A stretch of 64,000 nucleotides of DNA from a virus. Lineage: Duplodnaviria > Caudoviricetes. Positions 507 to 19,592 of this stretch are shown here, piece by piece. The notes beneath the pieces are model-generated. The model saw nothing but the letters and a program-made list of their open reading frames with translations. It searched no databases and had not been told where the DNA came from. The translations under genes were made by a program, and so were the position numbers. The number at the start of each line of letters is the position of its first letter. The stretch's first letter is position 1. The stretch spans positions 1 to 64,000 of IMG/VR virus record IMGVR_UViG_3300029305_004606. One strand, 5' to 3'.

Positions 507-517
507 TAATGATTTAG
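507..517 (+). repeat. Putative recombination site 1 (TAATGATTTAG)
   Basis: Invariant 11-mer at the in-frame start of a start-less cassette. Confidence 0.8.
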
Positions 518-1656
518 CTGGATATGGATCAGGTACTAAAGTAGCAGCTAAAGCAACATCTGCTACTAGTGCTACTTATAGTTCTACTGCTAACTATGCT
601 AAGAATGCTGGTTCTGCATCTAAAGCTACTAGTGCTACATCAGCAACATATGCTACTACTGCTACTAATGCTGGTTCTGCATCTAAAGCTACATCTGCTA
701 CTAGTGCTACTTATAGTAGTACTGCTAATTATGCTAAAGCTGTACCTAGTACTGTAGCTAGTAGAATTAGTACATTAGAAACGTCTTTTCGGGATGGCTG
801 TAATACAATAATGCAGGCAGTTACAGCCAAAGGACAAACTCCTGCATCAAATAGTCCTACTGATATTGCTACTGCTATTTCTGGTATTGGAGAGGGATTT
901 TATAACGCAGAATTAGTATATAGAGCTACTAAATCTTCAAGTGCTTCCAAAGAACTAACTGTATCAGATACTTATACTTTGAAAGAAAGCGGATATTATT
1001 TAGCATTTCTTGGAGGATTTAGTTCAACTCTTAACACAGCATATACGGTACCAAATACATCATCATTATTATATAATTCAAGTGCATCATTTACATCGGA
1101 TGGTAATACAATAGTATATGGTCAAGGTGCAGGTGGTGGTACAATTCATGATTATTCAAAATATGCTATTTTTTCTGGAGTCAAAGATAAAACGATTTCT
1201 TTTAATAAGTATATTAAATCAGATTACTATAACGTCTGTGCTGCAACTGCATTTGGATTATTTAGAGTTGAACAGGGTACATCGTTACTGTATAAAACAT
1301 ATAAAACAGGAACTGCTAAAGAAAAAGTTACTATAAGTGCTAGCTACAATATTAGTACAGCTGGTAAATATCTTGTAATAGCAGCAAGTCATGGTGCTGC
1401 TGTAAATGCAGGATATACAGATGCAATAACAGGTATCAAAACAACTATTAAATTCAATGATAATGTAGTAATTGATCTTCCTGTTAATGAAAAAATGAAT
1501 GTGAATTCCGGAAATAATCAAGGTTCAATATCTTCTGATGTAGAATATGCTTTTGTAGAAGGAACAGGAACTGTTTATGTAGAAAGATATTATTGTACAC
1601 ATAATACTTATACTGCTTTTGCTTCACTTGAATTATTTATATTTAAAATTGGATAA
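508..1656 (+). CDS. Silent tail-fibre C-terminal cassette 1 (no own start codon/RBS)
   Basis: Open frame NDLAGYGSGTKVAAKATSATSA... runs without stops into ORF 811-1656; Ala/Thr/Ser repeats, then TSFRDGCNTIMQAVTAKGQTPASNSP and a beta-rich domain. Confidence 0.8.
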   Translation, partial: NDLAGYGSGTKVAAKATSATSATYSSTANYAKNAGSASKATSATSATYATTATNAGSASKATSATSATYSSTANYAKAVPSTVASRISTLETSFRDGCNTIMQAVTAKGQTPASNSPTDIATAISGIGEGFYNAELVYRATKSSSASKELTVSDTYTLKESGYYLAFLGGFSSTLNTAYTVPNTSSLLYNSSASFTSDGNTIVYGQGAGGGTIHDYSKYAIFSGVKDKTISFNKYIKSDYYNVCAATAFGLFRVEQGTSLLYKTYKTGTAKEKVTISASYNISTAGKYLVIAASHGAAVNAGYTDAITGIKTTIKFNDNVVIDLPVNEKMNVNSGNNQGSISSDVEYAFVEGTGTVYVERYYCTHNTYTAFASLELFIFKIG

Positions 1657-1667
1657 TTACACTTATT

Positions 1668-1696
1668 TCCCAGTAGACTGATAAAGTCTACTGGGA
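1668..1696. terminator. Intrinsic terminator
   Basis: tcccagtagact-gataa-agtctactggga. Confidence 0.75.
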
Positions 1697-1718
1697 TTAT
1701 CTTTGTCTAATTAGAAAA

Positions 1719-1743
1719 TTTCAATTATATATTATAATTATGA
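1719..1743 (+). promoter_or_regulatory. Putative early phage promoter
   Basis: tttcaattatatattataattatga, identical at 20775-20799; variants upstream of about 10 plus-strand units. Confidence 0.7.
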
Positions 1744-1808
1744 AAGTAATGGAAATATAAACTTAGATACCACTTTCAGATTATCAATCAAGGAGGAAAA
1801 AATAAGGA

Positions 1809-2420
1809 ATGAAATTAACAAGTGTTGAAAGAACTATTTATGCTCTTTATGAGCTCGATGGATTAAGCTTCGCTCAAATTTCAAAAACTGTAGATTTATC
1901 TTCATCTGCAGTTAGAGAGAAATATAATAAGACTAAGCGTGTTGTAGAAGCTGAGAAAAATGATCCTATAGCAAAATTAAATATCGATTATTCTACTTAC
2001 ATGAAATTATGTAAAGCTAGAAACCATAGTGAAAGAAATACAGAACTTGGTATAGATCTTTATACTATTGAAGGTTTGATTGAAGCTGTTAATGATAGAT
2101 TTGAGACTTATAATCATACTCTGTATTTTGACATTATATCACCTATTGTTATCAAGAACCTTATTGAAGCATTGGAAGAAGCAGGATATGAGTTAAAAGA
2201 TAATCATCTTGATATTGGATTAAGCTTGACTTCTGATTTAATTTGTCTAAGATCCGAAAGATATATAGAGTTTGATATTATAGATACAAGTGGGATTTTC
2301 AAATGTGAATCAGACGGAACCAATGGTAAATTGTTTTTTGCCAAACAAACTAAGTATCCTAAGGATGAAATTCAGAAACAAATAATCCATCTTATGAAAG
2401 AAGAAGGATATATATTATAA
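1809..2420 (+). CDS. Sigma-70 region 4-like HTH followed by RNAP alpha-CTD-like segment
   Basis: LTSVERTIYALYELDGLSFAQISKTVDLSSSAVRE (sigma4-like); PIAKLNIDYSTYMKL...YTIEGL...IKNLIEALEEAGYEL (alpha-CTD-like). Confidence 0.5.
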   Translation: MKLTSVERTIYALYELDGLSFAQISKTVDLSSSAVREKYNKTKRVVEAEKNDPIAKLNIDYSTYMKLCKARNHSERNTELGIDLYTIEGLIEAVNDRFETYNHTLYFDIISPIVIKNLIEALEEAGYELKDNHLDIGLSLTSDLICLRSERYIEFDIIDTSGIFKCESDGTNGKLFFAKQTKYPKDEIQKQIIHLMKEEGYIL

Positions 2421-2432
2421 GGAGGGACAAAT

Positions 2433-3026
2433 ATGAAACATTTTACAATTCATACATGTGATTTTTGTGGTTATCAAAGTAGTAATTATGATCACATGAG
2501 AAAGCACGAAGCAGAACATCTTGGTCTTACTGTTGAGGAAATGGAATCTTATAATTCTTTAAAATCGTTTGCTGCATATATGGGTTCTGTGATAGCAGAG
2601 AAAAATAACGATGAGACTAAAAAGAAGTTTGATGAAGCTGTTGAAAAGTTGGTTGCTTTTGAAAAAGAGCATGGTATTGAAAATGGTAAACGTATAGAAC
2701 CAAATACAGACAGCGAGAATCCAAAATTTACATGGAGCGATAAAGAAGATCCTGAGTTATATCATAACGGTAAAACTATTTTATGGGTATCTGGTAGAAG
2801 TGCTGCTATTCAGAAATTTGTTGAAGCATTGAGTTATAAAATCTGTAGTAAATGTGACTTTTCATATACTGCAGGAAGAGCACATATTGATGTATTTAAA
2901 GATGCTGTTTCCAAAGCTCTGGTAGCTATTAATGACGAGGAATTTATGAAACAGTTTATAGTTCCTTACTCAAGAGAAGCATATGACAATGAAACATATT
3001 TTGAACCATTAAATATGGGACCATAG
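2433..3026 (+). CDS. Hypothetical protein with N-terminal C2H2 zinc finger
   Basis: CDFCGYQSSNYDHMRKHEAEH; RBS GGAGG. Confidence 0.55.
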   Translation: MKHFTIHTCDFCGYQSSNYDHMRKHEAEHLGLTVEEMESYNSLKSFAAYMGSVIAEKNNDETKKKFDEAVEKLVAFEKEHGIENGKRIEPNTDSENPKFTWSDKEDPELYHNGKTILWVSGRSAAIQKFVEALSYKICSKCDFSYTAGRAHIDVFKDAVSKALVAINDEEFMKQFIVPYSREAYDNETYFEPLNMGP

Positions 3027-3038
3027 GAGGACAAAATT

Positions 3039-3404
3039 ATGGTAGGATATAGAATTTATTTTGATGGTGAAAAGTTCGCCATGGATGATCATAAATCTCA
3101 GGTAGGAAATACACTGGTAGATGGAGTAGTACATTGGAATGCTGGATATGATACGGCAATTCAAGCAGTAGAAAACCATAATAATCATCTCAAAAAGAAT
3201 ATTAAAGATCTAAAAGATGACAAAGATTTTGTAGTTAAAAATTGTAAGGATTGTGGCAATTTCTATATAATCACAAAAATATATGCTGATTGGTTCCTGG
3301 AAAGAAAGTTAAAGGTGCCTTGTAGATGTGATTTATGTCGAATGAGACGCAAGTACAATAATAGAAAATCTGAAGATGTACAGACAGGAAAGAGTGGTGT
3401 ATAA
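3039..3404 (+). CDS. Zinc-ribbon protein
   Basis: CKDCG...PCRCDLCRMRRK (zf-trcl-like). Confidence 0.6.
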   Translation: MVGYRIYFDGEKFAMDDHKSQVGNTLVDGVVHWNAGYDTAIQAVENHNNHLKKNIKDLKDDKDFVVKNCKDCGNFYIITKIYADWFLERKLKVPCRCDLCRMRRKYNNRKSEDVQTGKSGV

Positions 3405-3406
3405 AC

Positions 3407-4174
3407 ATGATGCTCAAAATAACAGAAAGATGTACAATGGGATGTACTCATTGTCTCAATAATGCTCAACCTGATGGAAAAGATATGACGGAGGCTGTCT
3501 TTATTGACAGCCTCAACTTTTTGAAGAATAACAATGTTGGTAAATTTTTGGTTTTAAGTGGAGGAGAACCTACAGAACATAGAAATTTTGATAAAATGAT
3601 GAATGTTCTTATTCAGTGGTGTCAACAAAATAGAGGATATATAATGTCTCTTACTATAACAACAAATGGAGAAAATATACAGAATAATCCAGAACAGTAT
3701 AGGACTTATATTGAAAAGCTGAAAGAAACAGGTACAGTTTTAACATATCAAGTATCTGCTGATGTAAGATATTATCCTCGTAGAATTCAAACACATAAAC
3801 GGATTTTTAGAGAACCAGGATTTGTTTTATGCGATGATTGTGTTGAAGCTATTTATCCAAAAGGTAGAGCATTAGAAAATAATATTCCTTGGAACAGAAT
3901 TAGTTCTCAGTGTTTTAATGTGAGAGCTTTGTCAAAGCAGGGTAATGATAGTTTGTCAGAAATTGAATATATTTTAGGATCTAGAGGAAAGATATGTACT
4001 CCTCATATTGGAATTGATGGCAGTATTAAACTTGGTGAATCGGACCTTTGTCCTCCATGTACTTCCATTTATGATGATTCTAATATAATTATGGAAAAGA
4101 TTCGAAACTTTAAATGTTCTGGTTGCAATCATATTAATGATAATTTGCCTGAAGAATACAAGAAATTTTTATAA
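3407..4174 (+). CDS. Radical SAM protein
   Basis: CTMGCTHC (CxxxCxxC), GGEP, TTNG and a Cys-rich C-terminus. Confidence 0.9.
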   Translation: MMLKITERCTMGCTHCLNNAQPDGKDMTEAVFIDSLNFLKNNNVGKFLVLSGGEPTEHRNFDKMMNVLIQWCQQNRGYIMSLTITTNGENIQNNPEQYRTYIEKLKETGTVLTYQVSADVRYYPRRIQTHKRIFREPGFVLCDDCVEAIYPKGRALENNIPWNRISSQCFNVRALSKQGNDSLSEIEYILGSRGKICTPHIGIDGSIKLGESDLCPPCTSIYDDSNIIMEKIRNFKCSGCNHINDNLPEEYKKFL

Positions 4175-4181
4175 TAAAGAT

Positions 4182-4208
4182 CCCCTAGTAGTGTTAAACT
4201 ACTAGGGG
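4182..4208. terminator. Bidirectional terminator between convergent genes
   Basis: cccctagtagt-gttaa-actactagggg followed by a T-run. Confidence 0.75.
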
Positions 4209-4220
4209 TTTATTTTTTGT

Positions 4221-6029
4221 TTAACCATACTGAATAGCACTTGATTTTGTAATTACTGTTGTTGATAATACTTTTGTTAAAGCATATAATGCTTGCATAC
4301 TATCTGCACCAGGTTCTCTAAGAGGAGCTCCACCGAATGTAATAAAGTTCTGTTTACTATTCATAAATGCATCTAACTCAGCGTTTGCTTCTCTTGTATA
4401 TACACCTTTACATGTACACTGATCACCGTCATAGTCACCACCTATACCTGCAAGATAAGTATTACTAAATCTTAAAGTATCCACAAAAGTATTAGAAGTA
4501 TTTTTTCCAATATCTTCTTCTCTAATTTTAGGATACCATTTATAAGTTACTCCATTATACTCAATAACTTCCATCTCTTTAGTAGAAGAAACTTCTACCT
4601 TAGTAGCAAATTGGTTACTAAAATAATCTATTGGAAATCTGGTAATCAATATATGCTTATCTTTTACAGCTTCTACACAAGCCATATAGAAAACATCACA
4701 CCAAGTAAGTCTTCTCTGAGCAAGAGGATGACCATCATTTGGTCTATTGGCAGGATCTACTCCTCTTCCTTTAAACTGCATATAATATACTTCATCAGTT
4801 CCTTCTACAGGAATCTCTATAGGAACAAATCTGTTATTGTATCCATGTAAGAATCTATCCATTTCTTTTTTGATTCTTTCATCAGAGAAAACTATCTCAG
4901 GATTCTCAGGAACTATTACCTTAGTAGCACCAGATTTGGTAACTACAGGATAGGTATGAGATCCAATAAACTCATTTTCAAAGAATTGTCTAGTATGGTA
5001 CATAACAAAATCTCTGAACTGAGTAATAGCAGCATATAAAGGTACTGCTGATTTATCATAAGTAACCATTAATTCTTCAGGTCTATCTGCAGACTTAAGA
5101 TCAACCGGTGAAATAACTAATCTTGATGAGAAGTTAGCAGTCTTAGAAAGATTAGTTCTTCTCATGATACCAAGTTTACCAGACATACCCTGTCCAGAAT
5201 CTTTCTTATCAAGATTATTGTTACTATTACCACAGAACCAGTCATATATTGTCAAGATATATTCCTGAACTCTACCATTCATAGCATCAGAAGCATCAAT
5301 TCCATATTCCTGAGTAGCAGTTAAAGCATTTGCAGATACGATAAGATTATTATAAATCTTATTAATACCACCAAGTCCAACTACTTTACGAGAACTAGAA
5401 GCTGAGTTCTTATCTCTATAGAATGGAGGAATTACAATATATTTCTTGATAAACATATTATGTCTATTCTGTTCAAGATACTTAAGAGATAAAGCTTTGG
5501 ATTTAGAATTAGTCTTTCTGAATTGAACTTTATCAATATTCTTATGAAGCCAAGCTAATCCAGTATCTCCATTTTCTTCATCTTCTACAAAGTTTCCCTC
5601 GTCATCAATGATATAAAATTTGGTACCATGTACAATATTTCTTACCTTAGGATCTAATCTAATCCAAGTCTTATAACAAGATGGATCCAAGAACCATCCA
5701 TGTAAATCAATATATCCAAAGGTACCCATTCTTTCTTCCATAGTAAATCCGAAAATCTCATTTGACAATAATCCATCTTTACTAGGAATATTAGAACCAC
5801 TAAAAGCTCTAGGATTAGATACACATTTGATATTATTCTTCTTGACATATAATTCAATATCAAGAATATCAAGTTTAAGTCTTTCTACGACTTTATCATA
5901 CTGACCTTCTTCCATGTCTAATCCTTCAATAAACATATCAGCTTCATTCAAGAATTCGCTCATATCCATATATAAATCAGAATACATTGCTAATTCTGAA
6001 AGTATAGCTTTTGTTGATAATTTAGCCAT
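4221..6029 (-). CDS. Phage RNA polymerase beta' N-terminal subunit with catalytic site (probably virion RNAP)
   Basis: DGLLSNEIFG...FGYIDL, GKLGIMR, SSRLVISP, TRFP, GGDYDGD (DxDGD Mg-binding motif); split-subunit size; under a late-type promoter. Confidence 0.9.
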   Translation of the reverse strand: MAKLSTKAILSELAMYSDLYMDMSEFLNEADMFIEGLDMEEGQYDKVVERLKLDILDIELYVKKNNIKCVSNPRAFSGSNIPSKDGLLSNEIFGFTMEERMGTFGYIDLHGWFLDPSCYKTWIRLDPKVRNIVHGTKFYIIDDEGNFVEDEENGDTGLAWLHKNIDKVQFRKTNSKSKALSLKYLEQNRHNMFIKKYIVIPPFYRDKNSASSSRKVVGLGGINKIYNNLIVSANALTATQEYGIDASDAMNGRVQEYILTIYDWFCGNSNNNLDKKDSGQGMSGKLGIMRRTNLSKTANFSSRLVISPVDLKSADRPEELMVTYDKSAVPLYAAITQFRDFVMYHTRQFFENEFIGSHTYPVVTKSGATKVIVPENPEIVFSDERIKKEMDRFLHGYNNRFVPIEIPVEGTDEVYYMQFKGRGVDPANRPNDGHPLAQRRLTWCDVFYMACVEAVKDKHILITRFPIDYFSNQFATKVEVSSTKEMEVIEYNGVTYKWYPKIREEDIGKNTSNTFVDTLRFSNTYLAGIGGDYDGDQCTCKGVYTREANAELDAFMNSKQNFITFGGAPLREPGADSMQALYALTKVLSTTVITKSSAIQYG

Positions 6030-6047
6030 GATTATTCTCCTTTTTGA

Positions 6048-6671
6048 TTAATAAGTTACATAAAGACAACCTTCGTCACCATCACCTGTTGTAACAGAAA
6101 CATCAAGAACTTTTTCCAATTCTTCACCAATACTATAAATAATACCGTGTAATTTAATTCTGATTTCCTGATTATCATTACAAATCTCAAAAATAACTTC
6201 TTTATGTCCATTTTTATATTCGTTTTCTTCAAAGATATGACAAACTAATTTATGAGCTTTTAATCTTTTAAGTTCTGCAACAACTTTAGGATCATTATTA
6301 TATCTACGAACAATAATCATTAGCTGTTTTTTAATTTCAACAACATTTGTCTGTTTTCTATTTGCCCATCTTTCTTCTGCTCTTTTTGTATTATATTCTG
6401 TAAGAATTTTAGCTACTTCACTTCTCATCTTTGATGCTTTTCTATCAACATATGGTAACATTTCTATGATCTTTTTATTTTTATCATAGAAGTCTACACA
6501 TTCTTTACATTTTTGCTCATCTTTTGTTTTTATAGCTTCTTTGTAAAGTTTCTTAAAAGCTGTCCAAGCTTTATATGGCTCGATAAGTTCTTTCTTAATT
6601 GATCCGTCAAACAAACCAGATTCGTAAATAGATTCTCTTTTTTGTTCTATAAGTTCATCTATATAATTCAT
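6048..6671 (-). CDS. Hypothetical protein (likely late/virion)
   Basis: ATG at 6671 preceded by GGAGG; C-terminal GDGDEG. Confidence 0.6.
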   Translation of the reverse strand: MNYIDELIEQKRESIYESGLFDGSIKKELIEPYKAWTAFKKLYKEAIKTKDEQKCKECVDFYDKNKKIIEMLPYVDRKASKMRSEVAKILTEYNTKRAEERWANRKQTNVVEIKKQLMIIVRRYNNDPKVVAELKRLKAHKLVCHIFEENEYKNGHKEVIFEICNDNQEIRIKLHGIIYSIGEELEKVLDVSVTTGDGDEGCLYVTY

Positions 6672-6799
6672 TATCAAAACCTCCTTTATATTCAATTATA
6701 AGAATGTAGAAAGATTAGCCTTTTAAAAGAAAATAAAGATAATTCAATTTCTATCATCATTTTTACTTTATATTAATATAGTAAAAAGGAGACTTTTAT

Positions 6800-7372: not shown

Positions 7373-7412
7373 TAGAGTGATAAACTCTACTAGCTCTTTT
7401 GTTGGTCGTATT

Positions 7413-8572: not shown

Positions 8573-8588
8573 AAATAATCCTCCTCCC

Positions 8589-9335
8589 TTAAATATTAAT
8601 ATTTAAAGTATTTGTAGAAGTATCGTAATTGAAACAAGCATCGTCAATCATTCTTCTCCAACCGCTCCATGTAGAATCGTGTTTATATCTAACATGCATA
8701 GTTCTTTGGAATGAATAACATCCCCAAGCAATTTGTACAGCTCTATTTCCTGCAGGAGCTCCTACTGTAAGAACTTCATACCAAGCTGCATCGGGAAACT
8801 GAGGACTGGGTTCGTTGTCAATAGGTGAATTTCTAACTACATAACAGAGTTTATTCCAACATTTATGTCCTACTGTCATAGAATTAGAAAATATATCTGT
8901 AGATGTAGTATTTTCTCTCAAACTATTTACATTACTTGCACTAGATGCATATGTAGCACTAGTAGCAGAAGTAGCTTTGCTAGCAGTACCTGCACTGGTT
9001 GCTGTAGTAGCATATCTTGCACTAGTAGCAGATGTAGCTTTAGTAGATATACCTTTAAATGTATATAATTGAGAGTCATCTGAATGTATAGTTCTAGAAT
9101 AAGGATCAATATGTAATACAGTATTACCTGTTTTTGAATTATCTTTTGGTGCAATGCCAAAAATTCTAAATACCCCATTATAGTTATCAAGAGATATACC
9201 ATTCATAGATGAATTGTCATCTGGAGCTTCTAAATCCAATTGTCCACCTTCAGATCCTCCTGTCTGAGGTTTTATATTTATAAGTCCTCCAAATATACGT
9301 CCACCATTAATACCAAATTTCTTAGCTAAATCATT
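8589..9335 (-). CDS. Silent tail-fibre cassette 2
   Basis: NDLAKKFGINGG... in frame with ORF 8589-9239; KATSATSA repeats; knob-like VRYKHDSTWSGW; ends TNTLNINI. Confidence 0.8.
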   Translation of the reverse strand, partial: NDLAKKFGINGGRIFGGLINIKPQTGGSEGGQLDLEAPDDNSSMNGISLDNYNGVFRIFGIAPKDNSKTGNTVLHIDPYSRTIHSDDSQLYTFKGISTKATSATSARYATTATSAGTASKATSATSATYASSASNVNSLRENTTSTDIFSNSMTVGHKCWNKLCYVVRNSPIDNEPSPQFPDAAWYEVLTVGAPAGNRAVQIAWGCYSFQRTMHVRYKHDSTWSGWRRMIDDACFNYDTSTNTLNINI

Positions 9336-9336
9336 A
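9326..9336 (-). repeat. Putative recombination site 2
   Basis: CTAAATCATTA on the + strand. Confidence 0.8.
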
Positions 9337-9341
9337 ATAAT

Positions 9342-9381
9342 AATTATTCTTCTAGGTTAATATTAACCTAGAAGAATAATT
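9342..9381. terminator. Long perfect hairpin between cassettes 3 and 2
   Basis: aattattcttctaggttaa-ta-ttaacctagaagaataatt. Confidence 0.7.
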
Positions 9382-9392: not shown

Positions 9393-9995
9393 TTAATGAG
9401 CAGCTGCAGGTTCAGTAGTCCATCTATAATATATAGTCCAAGTTGTAGTAGAAGATACATCATTACCATTTAAATATGCATTATGAAGTGAAAAACTATC
9501 TCCAGCATTATTTATTTTAAAATCAGCAAAACCTCCATTAGAAGAATTTTGGAAATATCCAGCTCTTATTTTTGTAAGTTCAGGTACAAGAAATTGTTTT
9601 CTTTCATTATGATATACATATGGAATATGTACAGAAACAGCAACATTATCATTATTATCTAACTTAGCAGTTATAATAACCTCATAAATATTAACACCAA
9701 CACTCATACCTAAAGTTGAACATGTAACTTTGCCGGTAAGTGCCGAAATTTTATTCCATCTATGCAAATATCTTGTCATATCATTATTTACATCTATATA
9801 TCCTAAATTATTATTATCAACATATAATTTGACTTTAGTACATAGATTATTCATACTATCATATTCAAATGAAACGGCGTTATCGGTTCTACTTGTAGTT
9901 ACAAATCCTGTGCCGCTATTGCCACCTTTGCATACAGATGATACTAACATTTTTTCTGTATCATTTACATAATTTTCAATAGAATCTAAATCATT
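9393..9995 (-). CDS. Silent tail-fibre cassette 3
   Basis: NDLDSIENYVNDTEK in frame with ORF 9393-9950; no RBS. Confidence 0.75.
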   Translation of the reverse strand, partial: NDLDSIENYVNDTEKMLVSSVCKGGNSGTGFVTTSRTDNAVSFEYDSMNNLCTKVKLYVDNNNLGYIDVNNDMTRYLHRWNKISALTGKVTCSTLGMSVGVNIYEVIITAKLDNNDNVAVSVHIPYVYHNERKQFLVPELTKIRAGYFQNSSNGGFADFKINNAGDSFSLHNAYLNGNDVSSTTTWTIYYRWTTEPAAAH

Positions 9996-10017
9996 ATTAA
10001 TATTAATAATGATTTAG
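9986..10017. repeat. Back-to-back sites 3 and 4; perfect 32-bp palindrome
   Basis: ctaaatcattattaat|attaataatgatttag. Confidence 0.85.
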
Positions 10018-11015
10018 CTGGATATGGTAGTGGTACTAAAGTAGCAGCTAAAGCTACATCTGCTACTAGTGCTAGATATGCAACAACATCAACAAGTGCT
10101 GGATCTGCATCTAAAGCTACTAGTGCTACATCTGCAACATATGCTACTACAGCTACTAATGCTGGTACTAGTAACTATGCTAAGAATGCTCCTACTTATC
10201 AAGGTGCTACTACTGCAGCAGCTGGTGTAAAAGGATTAGTACCTGCAGCTACTACTGCTACTAAAGATAGTTTCTTACGTGGCGATGGTAAATGGGCTAC
10301 ACCTAGTAAAGCTACATCTGCTACTAGTGCTACTTATTCTAGTACTGCTAATTATGCTAAGAATGCTCCTCAATATAAAGGTGCTACAACAGCTGCAGCA
10401 GGAACTAAAGGATTAGTACCTGCAGCTACTACTGCTACTAGAAACTACTTTTTAAGAGGAGATGGTATATGGGCTATGCCTTCGGCTTCTGCAGTAGAAG
10501 GTAATGTAAGATACAATGAAACTTCAGATAAACTTGAAATATATTATGAAGGAGAATGGATATCAGTATTATCTTGTGGTTTACAAACAATAAATTTGAT
10601 TGGAACAGATTATACTTATCAAGAAGTATCTACAGCAAATCCTACATATTCTTTAACATTTTCAAATGGTATTAATTTACAATATAATAGAACTTCACAA
10701 GCATGGGGACATTGTTTAGTAAAAAAATCTACATTTGTTGATCTTACTGCATTTGAAAATCTATATGTTACTTATAGTGGAACATATACTACTAGTACTG
10801 ATAGTGATTATAATAAAATTGATATTCAATTTTATAATGAATCAGATGTTTGTATTTGGGAACAACGAATTACAGATAATGGAAAATCAACATTTACAAA
10901 TGTTACGAAATCATTTGATATTAGTACTTTGCAAGGAAGATGTAGAATATGTTTCAAAGTAAATGCAAACGGTAGCAATATGACATTAAATGTATCCAGT
11001 TTGTATGTAGACTAA
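10008..11015 (+). CDS. Silent tail-fibre cassette 4
   Basis: NDLAGYGSGTKVAAK..., two GATTAAAGxKGLVPAA...FLRGDGxWA fibre repeats; open into ORF 10476-11015. Confidence 0.8.
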   Translation, partial: NDLAGYGSGTKVAAKATSATSARYATTSTSAGSASKATSATSATYATTATNAGTSNYAKNAPTYQGATTAAAGVKGLVPAATTATKDSFLRGDGKWATPSKATSATSATYSSTANYAKNAPQYKGATTAAAGTKGLVPAATTATRNYFLRGDGIWAMPSASAVEGNVRYNETSDKLEIYYEGEWISVLSCGLQTINLIGTDYTYQEVSTANPTYSLTFSNGINLQYNRTSQAWGHCLVKKSTFVDLTAFENLYVTYSGTYTTSTDSDYNKIDIQFYNESDVCIWEQRITDNGKSTFTNVTKSFDISTLQGRCRICFKVNANGSNMTLNVSSLYVD

Positions 11016-11033
11016 ACAAATACTCCAGAGGTG

Positions 11034-12290
11034 TTAAACCTCTGGAGTATTATTTTGTCTGAAATATCCATGTAAACATTCAAGATTGTATTTTATAGTT
11101 TCATTTTCGGGATCTAAACTATATGCAGTTTCTGCATAAAATATAGACTGCATCTTCCAATCGTATCCTAAATCGCAATAGAAATATGCATTGCTCAATT
11201 CAGAATATACTTCTGCTTCCGATTTATATGTATATAGATTAAAATCTTCTACCCAATATTCTTCAGGACAATGAATATCAAAAAATTGACTATAATACAT
11301 AATAGATTTTACTTTGTCTACCTCCCATGCAACTCTAGCAATTTCTCTATAAATTACTCTAGTTCTAGGAAACTTACCTGTAGCAAATATATCTATACAT
11401 TTAAGCAATTCATTGTAAGCAATATCCCAATTATTTTTATAGATATAATATAAAGCAATATATCTTCTTAAACATAATATATATTGATAATCCATATAAT
11501 TTTCATCAGAAGAATTATCAGTAACTGCAAGTAATCCTAGTTTAGCATATCTATACATTTCTTCCCAATCAGAATGTTCATATGCTTCCCAGGCAAGATA
11601 AACCAATGTTTTACTTGTTCTATCTCCTCTTTTAAAAGAATTTTTCAATATTTCGTAATAATTTCTTGGTTTTTCTTTATCCTGAATATGTTTATATCCA
11701 ATATCACTTGGTAATATTCTCCAATACTTTTCAGATCCTGTTTTTGTAATAATTTCATGAATATCTCTTGTCCAGTAAAATTCTTTACTATGAACTTTAT
11801 GATGAACAAAAGATGTAGATTCTATTGAACCATCTGAGGCTATACATTCTACTGACATCTCCATAACATCATAATCATCACTCCAAATTTCTCTTATTTT
11901 GTTTATACCACCAGGTTCTATAAATTCATCAAGATCAAGACTAACATAAGCCCAATTATAATAATCATGAGGTTGTTTATATAAATCTCTACTTTGATTT
12001 ATTATACAATTCTGAGCCATTTCTAGACATCTATTTCTTGCCATAGAAAATGAAAATTCATCCTGTATATATGACATATATATTACTTTTGTAGAACCAA
12101 ACATGTTTTGATATTCTTTAATTTTATCAACTGTAGAATCAGTAGATCCTGTGTCTACTAAACATATCAAATCAGCATCTTTTACACTAGTAAACCATTT
12201 ATCAATATTCTTTTCTTCATTCTTACAGATAGTGTATACACATACCTTATTTCTATTATTGTCCATATATTTATATTCTTCATTAAACAT
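11034..12290 (-). CDS. Family 2 glycosyltransferase with TPR-like C-terminus
   Basis: VCVYTICKNEE, VDTGSTDST, FSMARN, LDLDE, helical repeats. Confidence 0.85.
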   Translation of the reverse strand: MFNEEYKYMDNNRNKVCVYTICKNEEKNIDKWFTSVKDADLICLVDTGSTDSTVDKIKEYQNMFGSTKVIYMSYIQDEFSFSMARNRCLEMAQNCIINQSRDLYKQPHDYYNWAYVSLDLDEFIEPGGINKIREIWSDDYDVMEMSVECIASDGSIESTSFVHHKVHSKEFYWTRDIHEIITKTGSEKYWRILPSDIGYKHIQDKEKPRNYYEILKNSFKRGDRTSKTLVYLAWEAYEHSDWEEMYRYAKLGLLAVTDNSSDENYMDYQYILCLRRYIALYYIYKNNWDIAYNELLKCIDIFATGKFPRTRVIYREIARVAWEVDKVKSIMYYSQFFDIHCPEEYWVEDFNLYTYKSEAEVYSELSNAYFYCDLGYDWKMQSIFYAETAYSLDPENETIKYNLECLHGYFRQNNTPEV

Positions 12291-12953: not shown

Positions 12954-12973
12954 CTCACTAGGGATTATCATTT

Positions 12974-14965
12974 TTATTTACCATTTCTCTTTTCTTTTAC
13001 TCCAAACACACAATAGTGTTCAAAATATGCAGATAAAGTCTTTGATTTGAATGCAATTCTTAAGTCAGAATAACGATTCTTATAATTGTTGACGTTGAAT
13101 GTTGCACATCCTATTCTACCTTCGTTCATACCATAATCTACGAAATGCTCAAACAACTTGATAGCAGTCTTTCCATATACTTTTGCAACGTCAGGATATT
13201 TAGTTGCATAATAAGTAGCATCAAATACAGGACTGTAATCAATATTATTTAAATAACACTTACCATTTGATACTTTGATAGAACCAGCTTTAGATTTACC
13301 AGTAGCATTTGTAACAGGTACATTTACAACAGGAGTTGAATTACCTCCCATAGCAGCCTTCATCTTATTATAAGAATTAGTACCATATACACCATCTGCA
13401 ACTAAACCATTAGCTTTCTGGAATTTTTCTACAGCATCTTCTGTTTTTGCACCAAAACTTCCATCAACTGTAAGTCCAGCATTAATCACCTTATTAAGGT
13501 TCTGCTGAAGTACCTTAACCTGATCGTTCTTCATACCTTTCTTTAAAGTAGGCTGAGCAACTGTAGTAGAAGTTGTAGATGTGCCAGACTTAAGTTCTAA
13601 AAGAACTTTCTCTTCTACCCATCCAGTAATCTGTCCATTAACACCAACTCTTGATTTAGAGTTAGTCATTCTTACTCTACCATTTACAACTTCATTACTC
13701 CATACATAGAATGTACCTGATTTTTTAACTCCAGTTTTAGCAACAGAAGAACCATAGAAAGTTACATTCTGAAGTTTGAAGCTTTCACCAGTCACAATTT
13801 CTTTGGAAGAAGGAGCAGGAGCTACAGGTGTTGTAGATTCCTCTTCATCGTCATAATCAATAGGATTAAGAGGTACATTTACATTACCTTTCATATTAAA
13901 GTAATTAAATACACCCTGAGCAATTTCTTTTGCACATTCTCTGCAGAAAGCATCTGATTTCAACAAATCAGATTCATTCTTATTAGTCATAAATGCAGCT
14001 TCAATTAAGGCAGCAGCTTTTACTCCCATTGCAGTACAGTTACACATAGAAAGAGCCATTCTCTTAACTCCTCTGTTTTTCTGTGCAGTTCCCTTAATAA
14101 GTTCATTCTGGATACATGTAGCAAGTTTTGCAGAATCTCCAGCTTTGCTATCTACAGCATGGTACAAAGTTTCCACTCCCTGACCAGTTGTATATTCCTG
14201 ACCATTTCCATGTGCATTTGCATGAACTGAAATACAGATTTCTGCACCCCATACTTTAATCTGAGCCTGTCTTGCTGTAAGTGCAACATCTGTATCATCT
14301 GTAGCATTTTCATCATCCCAAGCAACCTTTAATGTTTCAATGTTGTTTTTGGTGAGAATCTGATCAAGATAATATGAGATATATACATTACTGTAGTGCT
14401 CACGATATCCATCAGGATGTCTCTTACCAGCAGTATTAGATCCATGACCAGCATCAATAGCTACTCTGTGAAGAGCAACAGTCTTAGGATCATATTGAGT
14501 AAGATTATTTGTAGTAAGAACTCTGTATACATTATCTACATAATTAATAGATGTAGCATATCCTGCAGCCTTGATTTTTACAAGGTACTGATAAGGATCT
14601 GTTTCACCCTTCAACGCTTTATAGTTTGCAATATTGATAAACTGGAAGTAACCTTCTACACATTTTTCAATACTATCAAATCTGTACCAAGCCGTTGATG
14701 TAGGTAATAATGTATAACTACCATCAGCATTCTGTTCTGAACCACCATCTTCAAAGTAACCATTATTGCAGCTAACTCTATTCTGTCTATATTTCAAGCC
14801 AAGAATATTGTTATACAAAGCAGCTTTCTTAGATGTACCATATCCTGACTCAAGACATGCCTGAGCAATAATAGGCGAATGAACTAAGATACCATACTTG
14901 GGTGCATATTTTTGCACACATCTAGCTACTTCTTTGATGAATTCACTTTTAGACATAACAGCCAT
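12974..14965 (-). CDS. Modular lysin: GH73 glucosaminidase + Amidase_3 + PG-binding + C-terminal repeats
   Basis: IIAQACLESGYG/GYATS; VAIDAGHG, SVHAN, LIEAAF; LKKG...DGSFG...FQKANGLVADGVYG; FDATYYATKYPDV...HFVDYGMNEGR. Confidence 0.88.
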   Translation of the reverse strand: MAVMSKSEFIKEVARCVQKYAPKYGILVHSPIIAQACLESGYGTSKKAALYNNILGLKYRQNRVSCNNGYFEDGGSEQNADGSYTLLPTSTAWYRFDSIEKCVEGYFQFINIANYKALKGETDPYQYLVKIKAAGYATSINYVDNVYRVLTTNNLTQYDPKTVALHRVAIDAGHGSNTAGKRHPDGYREHYSNVYISYYLDQILTKNNIETLKVAWDDENATDDTDVALTARQAQIKVWGAEICISVHANAHGNGQEYTTGQGVETLYHAVDSKAGDSAKLATCIQNELIKGTAQKNRGVKRMALSMCNCTAMGVKAAALIEAAFMTNKNESDLLKSDAFCRECAKEIAQGVFNYFNMKGNVNVPLNPIDYDDEEESTTPVAPAPSSKEIVTGESFKLQNVTFYGSSVAKTGVKKSGTFYVWSNEVVNGRVRMTNSKSRVGVNGQITGWVEEKVLLELKSGTSTTSTTVAQPTLKKGMKNDQVKVLQQNLNKVINAGLTVDGSFGAKTEDAVEKFQKANGLVADGVYGTNSYNKMKAAMGGNSTPVVNVPVTNATGKSKAGSIKVSNGKCYLNNIDYSPVFDATYYATKYPDVAKVYGKTAIKLFEHFVDYGMNEGRIGCATFNVNNYKNRYSDLRIAFKSKTLSAYFEHYCVFGVKEKRNGK

Positions 14966-15086
14966 AATTAAAACCTCCTTTTTAGCGTTATTAATATTAG
15001 GTGCTATGTAAAAAACAACAAAAAATATATTTTGGAAATAAATGGCAGATAGGATAAAAATCCTATCTGCCGTTCTTTTCTATATT

Positions 15087-15821
15087 CTATTTATTTTTAC
15101 GCTCACATAAGATTTCTCTTCTGATGAGATTATAATCATGATTAAAGATAATTTCATAGTATCTATAAAAAGCCATTGGGTTTTTAACCAGCTCTTTATA
15201 GCTGTAATTGACATAATAAAAATCTGCCAATTCGGAATCAGGGATATCATAGCATTTATCAGTCCAAGTAGTAGTAAGATCTCTTATCTTACTATGATTA
15301 CCAGTATCATAATCACAAACAACACTTTCTAATATCAATAATGGGTTGTTAGAGTTTTTAGGATCATTGTATTCTGCAATGAATCTATTATAAATGTCTT
15401 TATTAAACTCAGCATCTTCATAATGCCACAAGCTTCGTCTTAAATAATCACGGCAATAATCAGCTAAAGAATATGCCGTATGAGTTTTAAAAGACATTCT
15501 ATGAGCAACTACATACATATGCCTACTTTTATCAATAAGATAGATCATAGCAGCAGTTAATTTGGTTAATTGAAATTTTTCTTTTTCTCCATTTGGATTA
15601 GTAATCTGCACACATTCTCTAAAATAATACCAGATATTATGCAAACATTCTAATTTAACTTTATTTCTTGTCAACTCATCAAGATTAGGATCATTTGGAT
15701 CAACGTTAATCAGTGTATGATCATTTAATCTTAGCATGAAGTCATAATTATTAACTCCATTATTTTTGAGTTGCTCGGATACTCTAAGAAAACTTTCATT
15801 AGAAGTTTTAAAATTAACCAT
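15087..15821 (-). CDS. Truncated paralogue of the phiKZ-type terminase large subunit N-terminal region
   Basis: ATG at 15821 after GGAGGTG; TSNESFL...LKNNGVNNYDFML...VDPNDPNL...ECLHNIWYYFRE; degenerate Walker A (AHRMSFKT). Confidence 0.65.
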   Translation of the reverse strand: MVNFKTSNESFLRVSEQLKNNGVNNYDFMLRLNDHTLINVDPNDPNLDELTRNKVKLECLHNIWYYFRECVQITNPNGEKEKFQLTKLTAAMIYLIDKSRHMYVVAHRMSFKTHTAYSLADYCRDYLRRSLWHYEDAEFNKDIYNRFIAEYNDPKNSNNPLLILESVVCDYDTGNHSKIRDLTTTWTDKCYDIPDSELADFYYVNYSYKELVKNPMAFYRYYEIIFNHDYNLIRREILCERKNK

Positions 15822-15884
15822 AGATAACACCTCCTTCTTTGGTTACTTACTAAGATGTATACAAGAGGTTTCTAATAAGAACTA

Positions 15885-15895
15885 TAATGATTTAG
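15885..15895 (+). repeat. Putative recombination site 5 (divergent left flank aagaacta)
   Basis: TAATGATTTAG. Confidence 0.75.
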
Positions 15896-16548
15896 CTGGG
15901 TATGGTAATGGTAGCAAAGTAGCAGCTAAAGCTACTAGTGCTACATCAGCAGTATATTCTTCTACTACTAACTATGCTAAAGCTAGTGCTGGTGCTACTA
16001 CTGCATCTAAAGCTACATCTGCTACTAGTGCTACTTATTCTAGTACTGCTAATTATGCTAAAGCTATACCATCTACGATAACTACTAGATTAACAAATCT
16101 TGAAACGTCTTTTCAGGATGGCTGTAATACAATAATGCAGGCAGTTACAGCCAAAGGACAAACTCCTGCATCAAATAGTCCTACTGATATTGCTGCTGCT
16201 ATAAATGCAATTCCTAATATATCAACAATATATGGAGATATAGTTGCTGGAGTTGGTGGATATAAATCAACTAAAATAACAGCTGTCAATGCTGCTCATT
16301 TTTGTAATCAGGAATATTTATTAAATAGATCTGATGGGCAATGGGATGTATTAAAAGCTGGAACTTATAGAGTTGCAATGTATTCACAGAATTCATATGT
16401 TTATTTTTCAGTAAATGGTACACAGACAAATTTAAAGTTTGGTCAACAATATATAGACTTTAATTTAAAGGTAGGAGATATTGTTTGTTTTTATCGAGAT
16501 ATATCTCAAGCAATGTATTGTTGCGGATATATTTGTTATATAGGATAA
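15886..16548 (+). CDS. Silent tail-fibre cassette 5
   Basis: NDLAGYGNGSKVAAK...; the ORF-track TTG start at 15766 overlaps the opposite-strand gene and has no RBS. Confidence 0.8.
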   Translation, partial: NDLAGYGNGSKVAAKATSATSAVYSSTTNYAKASAGATTASKATSATSATYSSTANYAKAIPSTITTRLTNLETSFQDGCNTIMQAVTAKGQTPASNSPTDIAAAINAIPNISTIYGDIVAGVGGYKSTKITAVNAAHFCNQEYLLNRSDGQWDVLKAGTYRVAMYSQNSYVYFSVNGTQTNLKFGQQYIDFNLKVGDIVCFYRDISQAMYCCGYICYIG

Positions 16549-16583
16549 TAATATCGGTAGTCTGATAAAGACTACCGATATTA
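16548..16583. terminator. Bidirectional terminator between convergent cassettes 5 and 6
   Basis: taatatcggtagtct-gataa-agactaccgatatta. Confidence 0.75.
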
Positions 16584-16586
16584 TAT

Positions 16587-17360
16587 TTATTTTGTTATAT
16601 AAATCATTCTGAAAGTAAATTCTACATATCCGGTAAAAGTTTCATTACTACCAATTACCATATACTGGTGATTATAATAACCATCTGCAATAATATGTCT
16701 TGTTGTATCTGTTAAATTTCTAGGTCTAAGTATTAATTCGCCTCTTAAATCATAATCAGATTCTCTATCCATTGCCCAAGGTAAACTAAATAAGGAAGTG
16801 TTTTTAGGTATATCTTGACCAGATCCATATGTTCCAGAACACATAACAACAGCAACTTTACCAAATCTTTTACAATAATTATCAGCAAGAGTTGCACTCC
16901 AAGCAGTACATTGAGACGTTTCTACAGTTATATTTGAACCTTCTGTGATACCAAGATTTAATATATCCTGTTTTGTTACAGCTGTAGCTCCTGTGATATG
17001 ACCGAGAGAATTAACAGTTATATTGTATAATCCTTTATTGTAAGCATTATAACTAGGATGAGTATAAAAATTTGCATCTCCTGAATTTAATTTCTTATTC
17101 CAAGGTACAGATATAGCCCAAGATCCACCTGAATTAGTTAAAGCTGTTGTATATATAACAGATCCATATCCTACCCAACCTATTAAATATATAGAAGTGC
17201 TTGATGTTTTTCTTGCCAAAATATACATTGTTTCACCACTATAAATTTCAGGTAAACCAAGATTAGTACATTTACATACATATGAACCACTATCATTAAT
17301 CTGACTAATAGATGTAATAGTAGTTATAGTATTATCTTTAGGAGACAAAGCTAAATCATT
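16587..17360 (-). CDS. Silent tail-fibre cassette 6
   Basis: NDLALSPKD...; fibre motif YTHPSY...GLYNITVNSLGHITGATAVTKQDILNLGI. Confidence 0.8.
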   Translation of the reverse strand, partial: NDLALSPKDNTITTITSISQINDSGSYVCKCTNLGLPEIYSGETMYILARKTSSTSIYLIGWVGYGSVIYTTALTNSGGSWAISVPWNKKLNSGDANFYTHPSYNAYNKGLYNITVNSLGHITGATAVTKQDILNLGITEGSNITVETSQCTAWSATLADNYCKRFGKVAVVMCSGTYGSGQDIPKNTSLFSLPWAMDRESDYDLRGELILRPRNLTDTTRHIIADGYYNHQYMVIGSNETFTGYVEFTFRMIYITK

Positions 17361-17361
17361 A
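17351..17361 (-). repeat. Putative recombination site 6
   Basis: CTAAATCATTA, 7 bp after the cassette 7 stop. Confidence 0.8.
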
Positions 17362-17368
17362 ATAATAA

Positions 17369-18280
17369 TTATACTTCAATATATACATTTGTTGCAGATA
17401 ACCAAGCATCCATATCACTTGGATATGTAGATCTAAAACATGAAACTGTAACTTTAAATTCTCCAGTAGATAATGAAGAAATATCATATGACAATGGTGT
17501 AGTTAATGCTTTTTCTGAACTTGATCCAGCAGTATCTTTAAATCCTATATTTCCTAATGTCATATAAGAATAACTATTATATCCAGCGACAGCAGTTTTA
17601 TATTTACCATTAACAATTACAAATTTATTAAATTGAGAAATATCAATATTATTAAATGTCCAAGTTACATTAGTATGATATCCTCCATTACCGCTATTGC
17701 TGGTACTAATAGCATAAAATTGACATATACCATTTACTTGTTTAATAGATTGATTTGCATATCCTGTTGCACCGTTTTTGGTTTTTGTAACTGTTCCAGA
17801 TCCAAGTAGATCTGTATTCAATATACCATCTTTAATTAAATATATTCTTGCAGGATATTCTGCAGCTAATATATCACATATTTCATCAAATGTCATACCT
17901 TCTGTTACAAGTCCAGAATATTGCATAGCTTCATATAATTGATCAAGATCAGTTCCTTCTCCAGTACCAGATTTAAAAGGGGTTACTGTATCAGCACCAC
18001 TTGGAATATATCCCCAATTTCCTTTCGAATCTTTTCCAAAAGACAATCCGCTACAATTCTTAGCATAATTAGCAGTACTAGAATAAGTAGCACTAGTAGC
18101 AGATGTAGCTTTAGCTCCATTCTTAGCATAATTAGCAGTAGAACTATAAGTAGCACTAGTTGCACTAGTAGCTTTAGATGCAGATCCAGCACTTGTTGCT
18201 GTTGTTGCATATCTAGCCGATGTAGCAGATGTAGCTTTAGCTGCTACCTTACTTCCACTACCATATCCAGCTAAATCATT
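17369..18280 (-). CDS. Silent tail-fibre cassette 7
   Basis: NDLAGYGSGSKVAAK...; GLSFGKDSKGNWGYIPSGADTVTPFK fibre motif. Confidence 0.8.
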   Translation of the reverse strand, partial: NDLAGYGSGSKVAAKATSATSARYATTATSAGSASKATSATSATYSSTANYAKNGAKATSATSATYSSTANYAKNCSGLSFGKDSKGNWGYIPSGADTVTPFKSGTGEGTDLDQLYEAMQYSGLVTEGMTFDEICDILAAEYPARIYLIKDGILNTDLLGSGTVTKTKNGATGYANQSIKQVNGICQFYAISTSNSGNGGYHTNVTWTFNNIDISQFNKFVIVNGKYKTAVAGYNSYSYMTLGNIGFKDTAGSSSEKALTTPLSYDISSLSTGEFKVTVSCFRSTYPSDMDAWLSATNVYIEV

Positions 18281-18281
18281 A
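18271..18281 (-). repeat. Putative recombination site 7
   Basis: CTAAATCATTA, 6 bp after the cassette 8 stop. Confidence 0.8.
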
Positions 18282-18287
18282 TTAATA

Positions 18288-18911
18288 TTATCCAATAGCT
18301 ATATATCCTACTTGTACTGTAATTTTTGTATTTTGCAAATTATGGATACATAAATTGCAATCGGTATTATTTAAGTTTGCAATCATTGTTGTTACATAAT
18401 ACCAATTTCCAGATGTACTATAAACAATAGGTATTACCATAGGAGGTAAATAAGGATATGAATTTCTAAAAGTCACCTTTAAAACACTATCTCCATTTGC
18501 AAGTATATCTACTCCTCCAATAAATGAAGATTCGATTCCACAAGAAGTCCATTCATCAGGAAATTGTAAAAAATCAGATCCATAAGTTCTCTTCCATACA
18601 ATATTTCCATCATTAGAAAAATATCCTTTATAAAATTTTATATTACTATTATCATTGTTTGTATAAAACAAATCAAATGTAGAAAATTGATTAGAACCAT
18701 ATTGAACTTCCGTTGAGTAATTCTTAACAACTCTTACGTTGTAATACCCTGTAATATTTATAGGAAAATCGGAAAGGGCATTCCATATAGTTATAATTCC
18801 AATAGAACCGTTTTCTAAGCTATTATAAATATCAACTAATTTTACAGAAGATGTATCCAGATTGTACTCGTCAAAATATACAACTTTATTATCTACTTTA
18901 TCTAAATCATT
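18288..18911 (-). CDS. Silent tail-fibre cassette 8 (H-type lectin-like C-terminus)
   Basis: NDLDKVDNKVVYF... open for 80 codons into ORF 18288-18671; VTFRNSY...PPMVIP...VGYIAIG*. Confidence 0.75.
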   Translation of the reverse strand, partial: NDLDKVDNKVVYFDEYNLDTSSVKLVDIYNSLENGSIGIITIWNALSDFPINITGYYNVRVVKNYSTEVQYGSNQFSTFDLFYTNNDNSNIKFYKGYFSNDGNIVWKRTYGSDFLQFPDEWTSCGIESSFIGGVDILANGDSVLKVTFRNSYPYLPPMVIPIVYSTSGNWYYVTTMIANLNNTDCNLCIHNLQNTKITVQVGYIAIG

Positions 18912-18933
18912 AATATTATTAATAATGATTTAG
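18902..18933. repeat. Back-to-back sites 8 and 9; 32-bp imperfect palindrome
   Basis: ctaaatcatt-aatattattaat-aatgatttag; same 12-bp spacing as 9986-10017. Confidence 0.85.
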
Positions 18934-19592
18934 CTGGTTATGGTAGTGGTACTAAAGTAGCAGCTAAAGCTACTAGTGCTACAAGTGCTAGATATAGTAG
19001 CACTTCTAACTATGCTAAAGCAATACCATCTACTGTAGCTAGTAGAATTACTACATTAGAATCATCATTAGCTAATAAAGTAAGTATTGGAAGTCAACCA
19101 AATTTTCCTGGTGTAACTATTGGATCGTCTGATAGTATGTCATATATTTATACAGAAAATGGTGATATTAATTTTAGATATCAACTAACCGGAAAAGAAA
19201 CAAATTATATATCTATTTCTAATCTTCATGATCAATGTATCAATGGATTTAAATCATATAATACATATTGGGGAAATGTAAATACATCTTTTACAGATGT
19301 AAATAATATTTATATAAATGGTATAGGTAATACTGTTGGAGGACAATATACAAATTTACCTTTAGATACAGATGGTTGGGGTACATTAATTAATTTTGTA
19401 TGTGATGTTACTATAATTCAATATTATTTTGGATGGAATTCTGGACATTTATGGTATAGAATGCATTATAATAATTATGCATGGGTAGATTGGTGTGATA
19501 TAACAAGTATTTCAAATAGACTTGATAATCTTGAAAATAAGTTTAATAATTTATTTTCACAGAGTGGTACCACTCTTAATATTACCTATTAA
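18924..19592 (+). CDS. Silent tail-fibre cassette 9
   Basis: NDLAGYGSGTKVAAK... open into ORF 19137-19592; knob-like WYRMHYNNYAWVDW; ends SGTTLNITY. Confidence 0.8.
   Translation, partial: NDLAGYGSGTKVAAKATSATSARYSSTSNYAKAIPSTVASRITTLESSLANKVSIGSQPNFPGVTIGSSDSMSYIYTENGDINFRYQLTGKETNYISISNLHDQCINGFKSYNTYWGNVNTSFTDVNNIYINGIGNTVGGQYTNLPLDTDGWGTLINFVCDVTIIQYYFGWNSGHLWYRMHYNNYAWVDWCDITSISNRLDNLENKFNNLFSQSGTTLNITY

Follow-up and report, generated by a model that had tools for sequence, protein, structure and literature searches.

Alternative junctions between a constant, putative tail-fibre gene and start-less cassettes at a short invariant site of a phage genome

In the first 64,000 nucleotides of the 200,990-bp viral contig IMGVR_UViG_3300029305_004606, the stretch of DNA that was analysed here and that we call the window, nine long reading frames without any start signal begin at the same short sequence, which is also read in frame by a constant gene for a putative tail fibre located upstream of the window. 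We interpret this arrangement as a system in which programmed DNA rearrangement at multiple sites exchanges the receptor-binding part of the fibre, a reading to which we assign a probability of roughly 85%. The anatomy of the system, its constant gene and alternative junctions in DNA of a single strain are directly seen in assembled contigs. The repertoire comprises at least 16 complete cassettes at 18 sites, with 11 cassettes residing in the contig, two in the IMG/VR contig G001 and three in a third assembly piece (piece C), and with members in both orientations. An earlier reading of the window from its sequence (the original prediction) had rightly proposed a large repertoire, although its figure of at least ten was too low.

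Results

A short site heads long reading frames without a start

The 11-mer TAATGATTTAG is found nine times in the window, compared to 0.33 copies expected from shuffled sequences and a maximum of two in any shuffle, and 11 times in the entire contig, where the two copies beyond the window are located at 198811(-) and 200295(-). An exact match count returned each of the nine positions and strands listed in the original prediction and no other copy in the window. All 11 copies open an intact frame in the phase that encodes N-D-L, extending over 179-382 codons (200-382 for the copies in the window), and at none of these sites did we find a plausible start codon or Shine-Dalgarno (SD) sequence, except for incidental TTG codons at 15766 and 18295, both features having been recognised at the outset. 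The ordinary genes nearby, unlike the heads of the cassettes, are preceded by a strong GGAGG. An in-frame stop is located 4-9 codons upstream at nine of the 11 sites, 30 codons upstream at 507 and 46 codons upstream at 15885. The other two frames are closed within the motif itself, one by TAA and TGA and the other by ATG-ATT-TAG, and since the motif thereby holds all three stop codons, only the N-D-L frame can cross a site. The sites, cassettes and adjoining hairpins of the window are as follows.

1-29, plus strand: 3' tail of cassette X (..GTTLTITF, stop), whose head and 11-mer are located off the contig; the whole cassette, with its site at 10540, is found in G001 (locus L129)
458-486, plus strand: terminator-like hairpin between gene a1 and the next site
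507-1656, plus strand: site (507-517) and start-less cassette c507 of 382 codons, followed by a terminator-like hairpin at 1668-1696
8589-9336, minus strand: site (9326-9336) and start-less cassette c9336 of 248 codons, with a hairpin just upstream at 9342-9381
9393-9996, minus strand: site (9986-9996) and start-less cassette c9996 of 200 codons, head-to-head with the site at 10007 across a 10-nt A/T spacer
10007-11015, plus strand: site (10007-10017) and start-less cassette c10007 of 335 codons
15885-16548, plus strand: site (15885-15895) and start-less cassette c15885 of 220 codons
16587-17361, minus strand: site (17351-17361) and start-less cassette c17361 of 257 codons
17369-18281, minus strand: site (18271-18281) and start-less cassette c18281 of 303 codons
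18288-18912, minus strand: site (18902-18912) and start-less cassette c18912 of 207 codons, head-to-head with the site at 18923
18923-19592, plus strand: site (18923-18933) and start-less cassette c18923 of 222 codons, ending in ..TLNITY

The assignment of bases 1-29 to the tail of a further cassette, already made in the original prediction, is borne out by the complete copy in G001. Seven of the 11 contig sites are inverted relative to the other four. Tandem cassettes are separated by only 6-7 nt, several cassettes are followed by terminator-like hairpins that each lead into a T run, and hairpins also precede the sites at 507 and 9336. Across all pieces, no fewer than 16 frames that lack a start, 141-382 codons in length, remain intact in a genome with a guanine-cytosine (GC) content of 31%. 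For the cassettes, no Pfam family reaches its threshold and PHROG matches are confined to families of unknown function, and in searches of GenBank phages neither the region nor cassette c507 nor the constant domain described below found a match at the level of DNA or protein. A cassette with 55% identity to c10007, which is likewise start-less behind the motif, is present in the ENA contig L128. The reading of TGA as tryptophan by which the source gene caller reached an ATG upstream of cassette c198821 (L137, L138-L144, gene P0002) was rejected as an artefact of the missing start and provides no evidence for another genetic code.

As originally noted, the left flank is composed purely of A and T at eight of the nine window sites, the exception being 15885, and these left arms share no homology between sites. 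On the right, five window cassettes start with NDLAGYG(S/N)G(T/S)KVAAKATSATSA, encoded with synonymous codon differences, while the other four diverge directly past NDL, again as described before; an N-terminus close to NDLAGYGSGTKVAAKATSATSA is common to seven of the contig cassettes and is similarly encoded by differing synonymous codons. The fact that the 11-mer is invariant in the strain while the codons next to it vary synonymously indicates that it is constrained as DNA. Its 11th base can vary in the relative L197, whereas the 10-mer TAATGATTTA shows no nucleotide change at any site examined, either in the strain or in six related contigs (38 exact matches, of which two are probably due to chance, plus L208), not even next to a constant domain of only 56% identity. 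The functional core is the 10-mer rather than the full 11-mer. Two further copies of the 10-mer that lack the final G, at 31052 in the window and at 76266 in the contig, reside inside other open frames and are probably fortuitous. An exact 15-mer scan of IMG/VR returned 117 loci, all of them chance matches with unrelated proteins.

A constant gene reads the site in frame

The original prediction had called for a constant fibre gene that ends in the site, probably upstream of base 1. Such a gene is encoded in G001 at positions 8927-9844 of L129, with AAAGGAGG and an ATG, and contains the 11-mer in frame at 9301. Its constant N-terminus of 125 residues begins with MASYLRPRRGKK.. and ends with ..NSQLTTLN, followed by NDL (codons 126-128) and by a cassette termed c0. 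The start of the gene is located about 2.0 kb, and the site within it about 1.6 kb, upstream of window base 1, a physical linkage that is contained in contigs L202 and L205, and the constant 5' segment, with its own start and the site in frame, recurs in L137, L197, L199, L208 and L215.

The gene is preceded by collagen-like tail-fibre genes and by a gene with an Mtd_N domain, a neighbouring gene of 141 residues passing the respective Pfam model, to which neither the contig nor the constant protein gave a match. The constant gene product itself stays below the threshold of every Pfam family but has tail-fibre matches in PHROG. In an AlphaFold model, the constant domain consists of a small β-domain and a helix encompassing residues 103-127, which stops at NDL, and its best fold matches are the HylP tail fibres of streptococcal phages, although these matches are weak (E 0.02-0.06). 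Homologues in databases are full fibres that share the N-terminal motif and contain KATSATSATY and GLVPAAT..FLRGDG repeats. PHROG matches, sequence motifs, the neighbourhood of fibre genes and the HylP fold tentatively point to a tail-fibre or receptor-binding protein.

A search with the constant domain identified 168 database proteins. The 120 listed are 47-100% identical, and 84 of these 120 contain NDL at the junction, beyond which the C-termini differ widely. A selected alignment of 24 constant domains displays an invariant LNNDL end, and across the database this end is joined to dozens of unrelated C-termini, few of which, among the proteins listed, resemble the cassettes of this strain. 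The same layout, with a site-in-frame constant gene and start-less cassettes in both orientations, is found in the relatives L197 (a 262-kb scaffold), L199 (a 104-kb contig), L208 and L128, with 3-9 start-less cassettes in each of L197, L199 and L208. In L199, the block containing endolysin and glycosyltransferase is located between sites in an orientation opposite to that of the window.

Different junctions are found at the site within one strain

Within one strain, REARRANGEMENT at the site is evident from metagenome contigs of 99.5-100% identity that contain different junctions exactly at this position. Other samples of the strain thus show, as had been anticipated, different flanks joined precisely at the motif. 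The contig L137 (JGI 3300018494) combines positions 3587 to 1668 of G001 with positions 200307 to 197893 of the contig, being 100% identical on either side of a 15-nt overlap, and encodes a fusion protein of 441 residues consisting of the constant part and cassette c200305. The same cassette resides silently behind gene a2 and a terminator in the contig, L138, L209 and L212-214. The junction of the constant part with c0 is found in G001 and in a contig of JGI 3300029705, whereas elsewhere (ERZ27248446) c0 is annotated as a start-less gene of 161 residues behind four opposite-strand genes, which match no known piece. A c0-type cassette in silent context is also present in the ENA contigs L134 and L135, whose homology to G001 begins at the motif.

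A further exchange involves a site that has no cassette. This null site, TAATGATTTAA, is located at about 30624-30634 (-) of G001, 110 nt from the end of that contig, and heads only ten codons, while on the opposite strand a ribosome-binding site (RBS) and an ATG abut it. It nevertheless takes part in precise exchange, since in L210 and L211, from two samples, the arm of a2 is joined via TAATGATTTA to its downstream side at the far end of G001. The 11th base of this junction (A) goes with the right flank, which places the crossover inside the 10-mer. The precision at the 10-mer in L137, L210 and L211 agrees with the proposal of a site-specific junction. Recombination within cassettes was observed in L209 (2249-3361, combining the contig 198821 region and window 10335-11377), which contains a chimera of the head of c198821 and the body of c10007 connected via a shared GATTAAAGTKGLVPAAT repeat, indicating that homologous recombination also generates new cassette mosaics.

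A close strain (L215, 99.7% identical) and the relative L199 both show an order in which the constant segment is directly followed by a c200305-like cassette and a gene of 144 residues. An isomer with the order constant-c0-g199-X1-a2-c200305 was also observed, in which all sites are direct repeats.

A candidate recombinase

Upon a search for the tyrosine or serine recombinase that the original prediction had called for, a single protein of the contig matched PF00589, an Xer-like tyrosine recombinase of 359 residues encoded at 82,418-83,497, whereas neither the contig nor G001 yielded a match at E≤1 to PF00239, the family of serine recombinases. The best models for this protein are XerA, XerC and XerD (223 bits for the XerA equivalog), and its catalytic residues R, K, HxxR, H and Y align with those of XerA (4a8e). 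Its orthologue in L208 is located inside the array between cassettes, and orthologues of the recombinase and homologues of the constant domain are found on contigs of equal sizes (103,589, 250,055, 289,635 and 14,365 bp). We thus infer that this protein is the most likely candidate for the catalyst of the exchange. It contains an N-terminal extension of 85 residues beginning with RGRPRK, which resembles an AT-hook. The motif GRP(R/K)K is strictly present in 53 of 120 orthologues, with looser GRP or ARP forms in several others, and one might speculate that it suits the A/T-only left arms of the sites.

Discussion

Proposed mechanism and its alternatives

In the mechanism that we favour, one expressed gene would supply the RBS, the ATG and an anchor of 125 residues, predicted to consist of a small β-domain and a long helix ending in ..LTTLN-NDL, whose N-D-L codons would at the same time constitute the recombination site TAATGATTTA(G). 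This gene would be accompanied by a silent store of at least 16 complete 3' segments, which begin at the same site without a start signal, and strand exchange inside the 10-mer would join the constant segment to a new cassette and silence the previous one, with inversion being needed for cassettes of opposite orientation. The resulting change of the receptor-binding part would presumably alter the host range. Several observations weigh against this proposal. Homologous recombination is active in the region, as is apparent from the flip of a 194-bp inverted repeat described below and from the chimera in L209, and some rearrangements are not site-specific. All variant junctions originate from different samples. 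The evidence for a tail-fibre is weak, with weak HylP matches and no Pfam family for either the cassettes or the constant gene. Finally, the recombinase is located about 63 kb from the nearest cassette and could instead serve in dimer resolution or integration.

Either inversions or direct-repeat recombination could account for the junctions seen, and we consider it possible, though on balance unlikely, that the main reaction resembles that of integrons, where modules flanked by direct repeats would be excised as circles and reintegrated at the site of the constant gene, with inversion being restricted to oppositely oriented cassettes. The isomer mentioned above contains every site in direct repeat, and L137 differs from it by the clean loss of the 2.3-kb module c0..a2. 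A move of this module from the constant to the far site jointly explains the a2|null junction in L210 and L211, the junction of the constant segment with c200305 and the silent c0, and we regard such a move between direct sites as the simplest account of these arrangements. The module-less order in L215 and L199, and an equivalog of XerA and integron integrases as the best NCBIfam model for the recombinase, point in the same direction. Conversely, the seven inverted contig sites require inversion, and with so many of them inversions alone can reach any arrangement. No circular molecule was observed among the contigs, the scores of the recombinase for integron-integrase models are far below cut-off (77 bits for TIGR02249 with a cut-off of 265 and 43 bits for NF011946 with a cut-off of 435), and the cassettes contain neither attC-like structures nor starts of their own. 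Inversion, which the original prediction had named as the mechanism, is needed for the inverted sites but may not be the only reaction, as several arrangements are most simply explained by direct-repeat recombination. A tentative extension of our proposal, to which we attach a similarly limited likelihood, would accommodate both reactions. In this scenario, a recombinase with an AT-hook-like GRP(R/K)K motif would act regardless of the orientation of sites and invert, excise and reintegrate modules among at least 18 sites across about 245 kb or more, as a hybrid between a shufflon and an integron that would also move blocks of essential genes and to which partner or tip genes behind ..TLTITY cassettes would add another swappable layer.

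We find it improbable that there is no dedicated switch and that the N-D-L linker is only a hotspot for occasional homologous or illegitimate exchange between phages, with the start-less frames as leftovers. Homologous recombination plainly occurs among cassette repeats, as described for L209 and the inverted-repeat flip, and the origin of the variant junctions from different samples would be compatible with this view. It is, however, at odds with the intact state of the many start-less frames at low GC content, with the invariance of the 10-mer in the strain and the six related contigs next to left arms that lack homology, with the precise recombination of a null site that has no cassette, with junction overlaps of only 13-15 nt and with the location of the recombinase gene within the array of L208.

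Even less probable is the possibility that each cassette is an independent gene with an unusual start at the motif, either by way of an AUG-AUU-UAG mini-ORF (open reading frame) followed by a -1 shift or by reiterative transcription at UUU. The motif does contain an ATG, one added U or a -1 shift after AUU would lead into the N-D-L frame, and tandem cassettes are closely spaced. Still, the sites lack the SD sequence that is strong in ordinary genes as well as any slippery sequence, the constant gene contains the motif in frame and occurs in fusions with two cassettes, and most of the listed database proteins with the constant domain carry NDL at the junction. Upon finding these fusions, we have dropped the considered variants of unusual translation, including mini-ORF reinitiation, -1, +1 or +2 frameshifts, ATT or ATA starts, TAG recoding, UUU reiterative transcription and trans-splicing. 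Least of all do we expect the variant junctions to be assembly chimeras since, despite their location on short metagenome contigs in a repeat-rich region, the 13-15 nt shared at the junctions are shorter than the k-mers used by metagenome assemblers, two samples yielded independent assemblies of the a2|null junction and the order of the constant|c200305 type recurs in the 99.7%-identical strain.

Relation to known systems

The closest published system is the Rin shufflon of prophages from Bifidobacterium breve and longum (Mavrich et al. 2018, PMC6109161), whose five Rv segments form a single compact locus beside rin in the genome of a temperate siphovirus. Both systems combine a constant 5' segment of a receptor-binding protein with start-less 3' segments, each preceded by a short asymmetric repeat (11 bp), and a tyrosine-family recombinase, and in both cases variants were found by comparing assemblies. 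Unlike in Rin, the at least 16 cassettes described here are distributed over 18 sites among essential genes, the recombinase is located about 63 kb away, the site sequence is unrelated, some modules include a second partner gene and direct-repeat recombination may occur. Directional 10-bp motifs between cassettes at the end of a tail-fibre gene, with configurations that differ between samples, were also described for a shufflon of BV01-like Phocaeicola phages (PMC13596623, preprint), which comprises three cassettes within 1.7 kb of a temperate phage and an adjacent recombinase.

The R64/IncI shufflon (Rci, sfx, pilV) similarly employs a tyrosine recombinase and multiple sites, of which the core and one arm are conserved, to connect a constant N-terminus to variable C-termini, and one of its segment ends lacks an ORF, comparable to the null site. 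It differs by acting on a plasmid-encoded pilus adhesin with four segments and seven sites within about 2 kb. Rci is strictly confined to inversion, and the recombinase found here is not its orthologue. The Gin (Mu), Cin (P1) and Min (p15B) systems, the last with six crossover sites, switch C-termini of phage tail fibres together with a downstream assembly or partner gene but rely on serine invertases and an enhancer, in contrast to the lack of a PF00239 protein in our case. With integrons (IntI, attI, attC), the system shares an unexpressed store of cassettes, a single expression site and a tyrosine recombinase, and several of its junctions fit excision and reintegration at direct sites; however, the cassettes of integrons are entire genes that carry attC hairpins, whereas here they are in-frame 3' halves of genes behind a 10-bp site and the hairpins are terminator-like.

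While this mode of changing host recognition is known, its scale is not, and what stands out are the 18 sites, their dispersal among essential genes, the alternative fusions in evidence and possible orientation-independent reactions. A literature search found no paper that combines the terms shufflon and jumbo, and among the listed papers containing the motif string none concerned phages. Swapping of tips in small temperate phages involves two to six variants, compared to at least 16 in the one genome described here and dozens more behind the same junction in its relatives, which would make it one of the largest repertoires for host range that any single virus encodes. With an exchange site defined to 10 bases and a candidate recombinase, it is directly testable, and it may be of use for building phages with exchangeable receptor-binding modules.

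Putative partner genes behind cassettes

Some cassettes are followed by a gene of a family that we have defined by BLASTP among g199, a1, a2, w19613 and L137_124. Its members have their own RBS, a common N-terminus of 35 residues (MSIKVNGTEIP..TVW) and a variable remainder, and each follows a cassette that ends in ..(T)TL(T/N)ITY.

42-428, plus strand: gene a1 of 128 residues with RBS and ATG, N-terminus MSIKVNGTEIP..
19613-20128, plus strand: w19613 of 171 residues, a member of the MSIK(V/F)N.TEIP family after c18923, 69% identical to a2
L129 9860-10459, L138 121-636 and L137 3948-4319: other members of the family

Judging from sequence and position, the proteins are probably cassette-specific partners, in the manner of Sv-U in phage Mu, tip proteins or chaperones, and they may form a second swappable layer.

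Genome and assembly

The genome is that of a probably virulent jumbo phage with its own multisubunit RNA polymerase (RNAP), from anaerobic gut-type metagenomes. Its cassettes are dispersed over three assembly pieces among ordinary genes, which include those for an RNAP subunit, an endolysin, a glycosyltransferase and a terminase fragment. The latter, an ORF of 247 residues at window 15087-15830 (-), has matches solely to the ATPase part at the N-terminus of the large terminase. Since searches of the entire contig gave no terminase nuclease domain, either the gene is split or very divergent, or its remainder is located on a missing piece.

The ends of the contig form an exact inverted repeat of 127 bp (window 1-127 and contig 200864-200990) and are unlike beyond it. 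This repeat belongs to the internal inverted repeat of 194 bp, which is made up of the tail of cassette X, the RBS and 86 nt from the start of gene a1 or a2. As each of the four possible pairings (X1-a1, X1-a2, X2-a1 and X2-a2) occurs in one sample or another, the repeat flips by homologous recombination, and the CheckV label of an inverted terminal repeat with 100% completeness is an assembly effect. The contig is incomplete and lacks at least G001 and piece C. G001 (30,734 bp, CheckV 13%) overlaps exactly with window bases 1-43, beyond which the two have only cassette-type sequence in common, and the JGI contigs L202 and L205 pass uninterrupted from G001 into window base 1. Piece C (13 kb; L200 1-9960), which is absent from both the contig and G001, contains three more sites and is also joined to the window start. 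The known pieces of 201, 31 and 13 kb sum up to about 245 kb, and a system that rearranges repeats and cassettes accounts for the fact that assemblies of such genomes are broken up and wrongly rated as complete.

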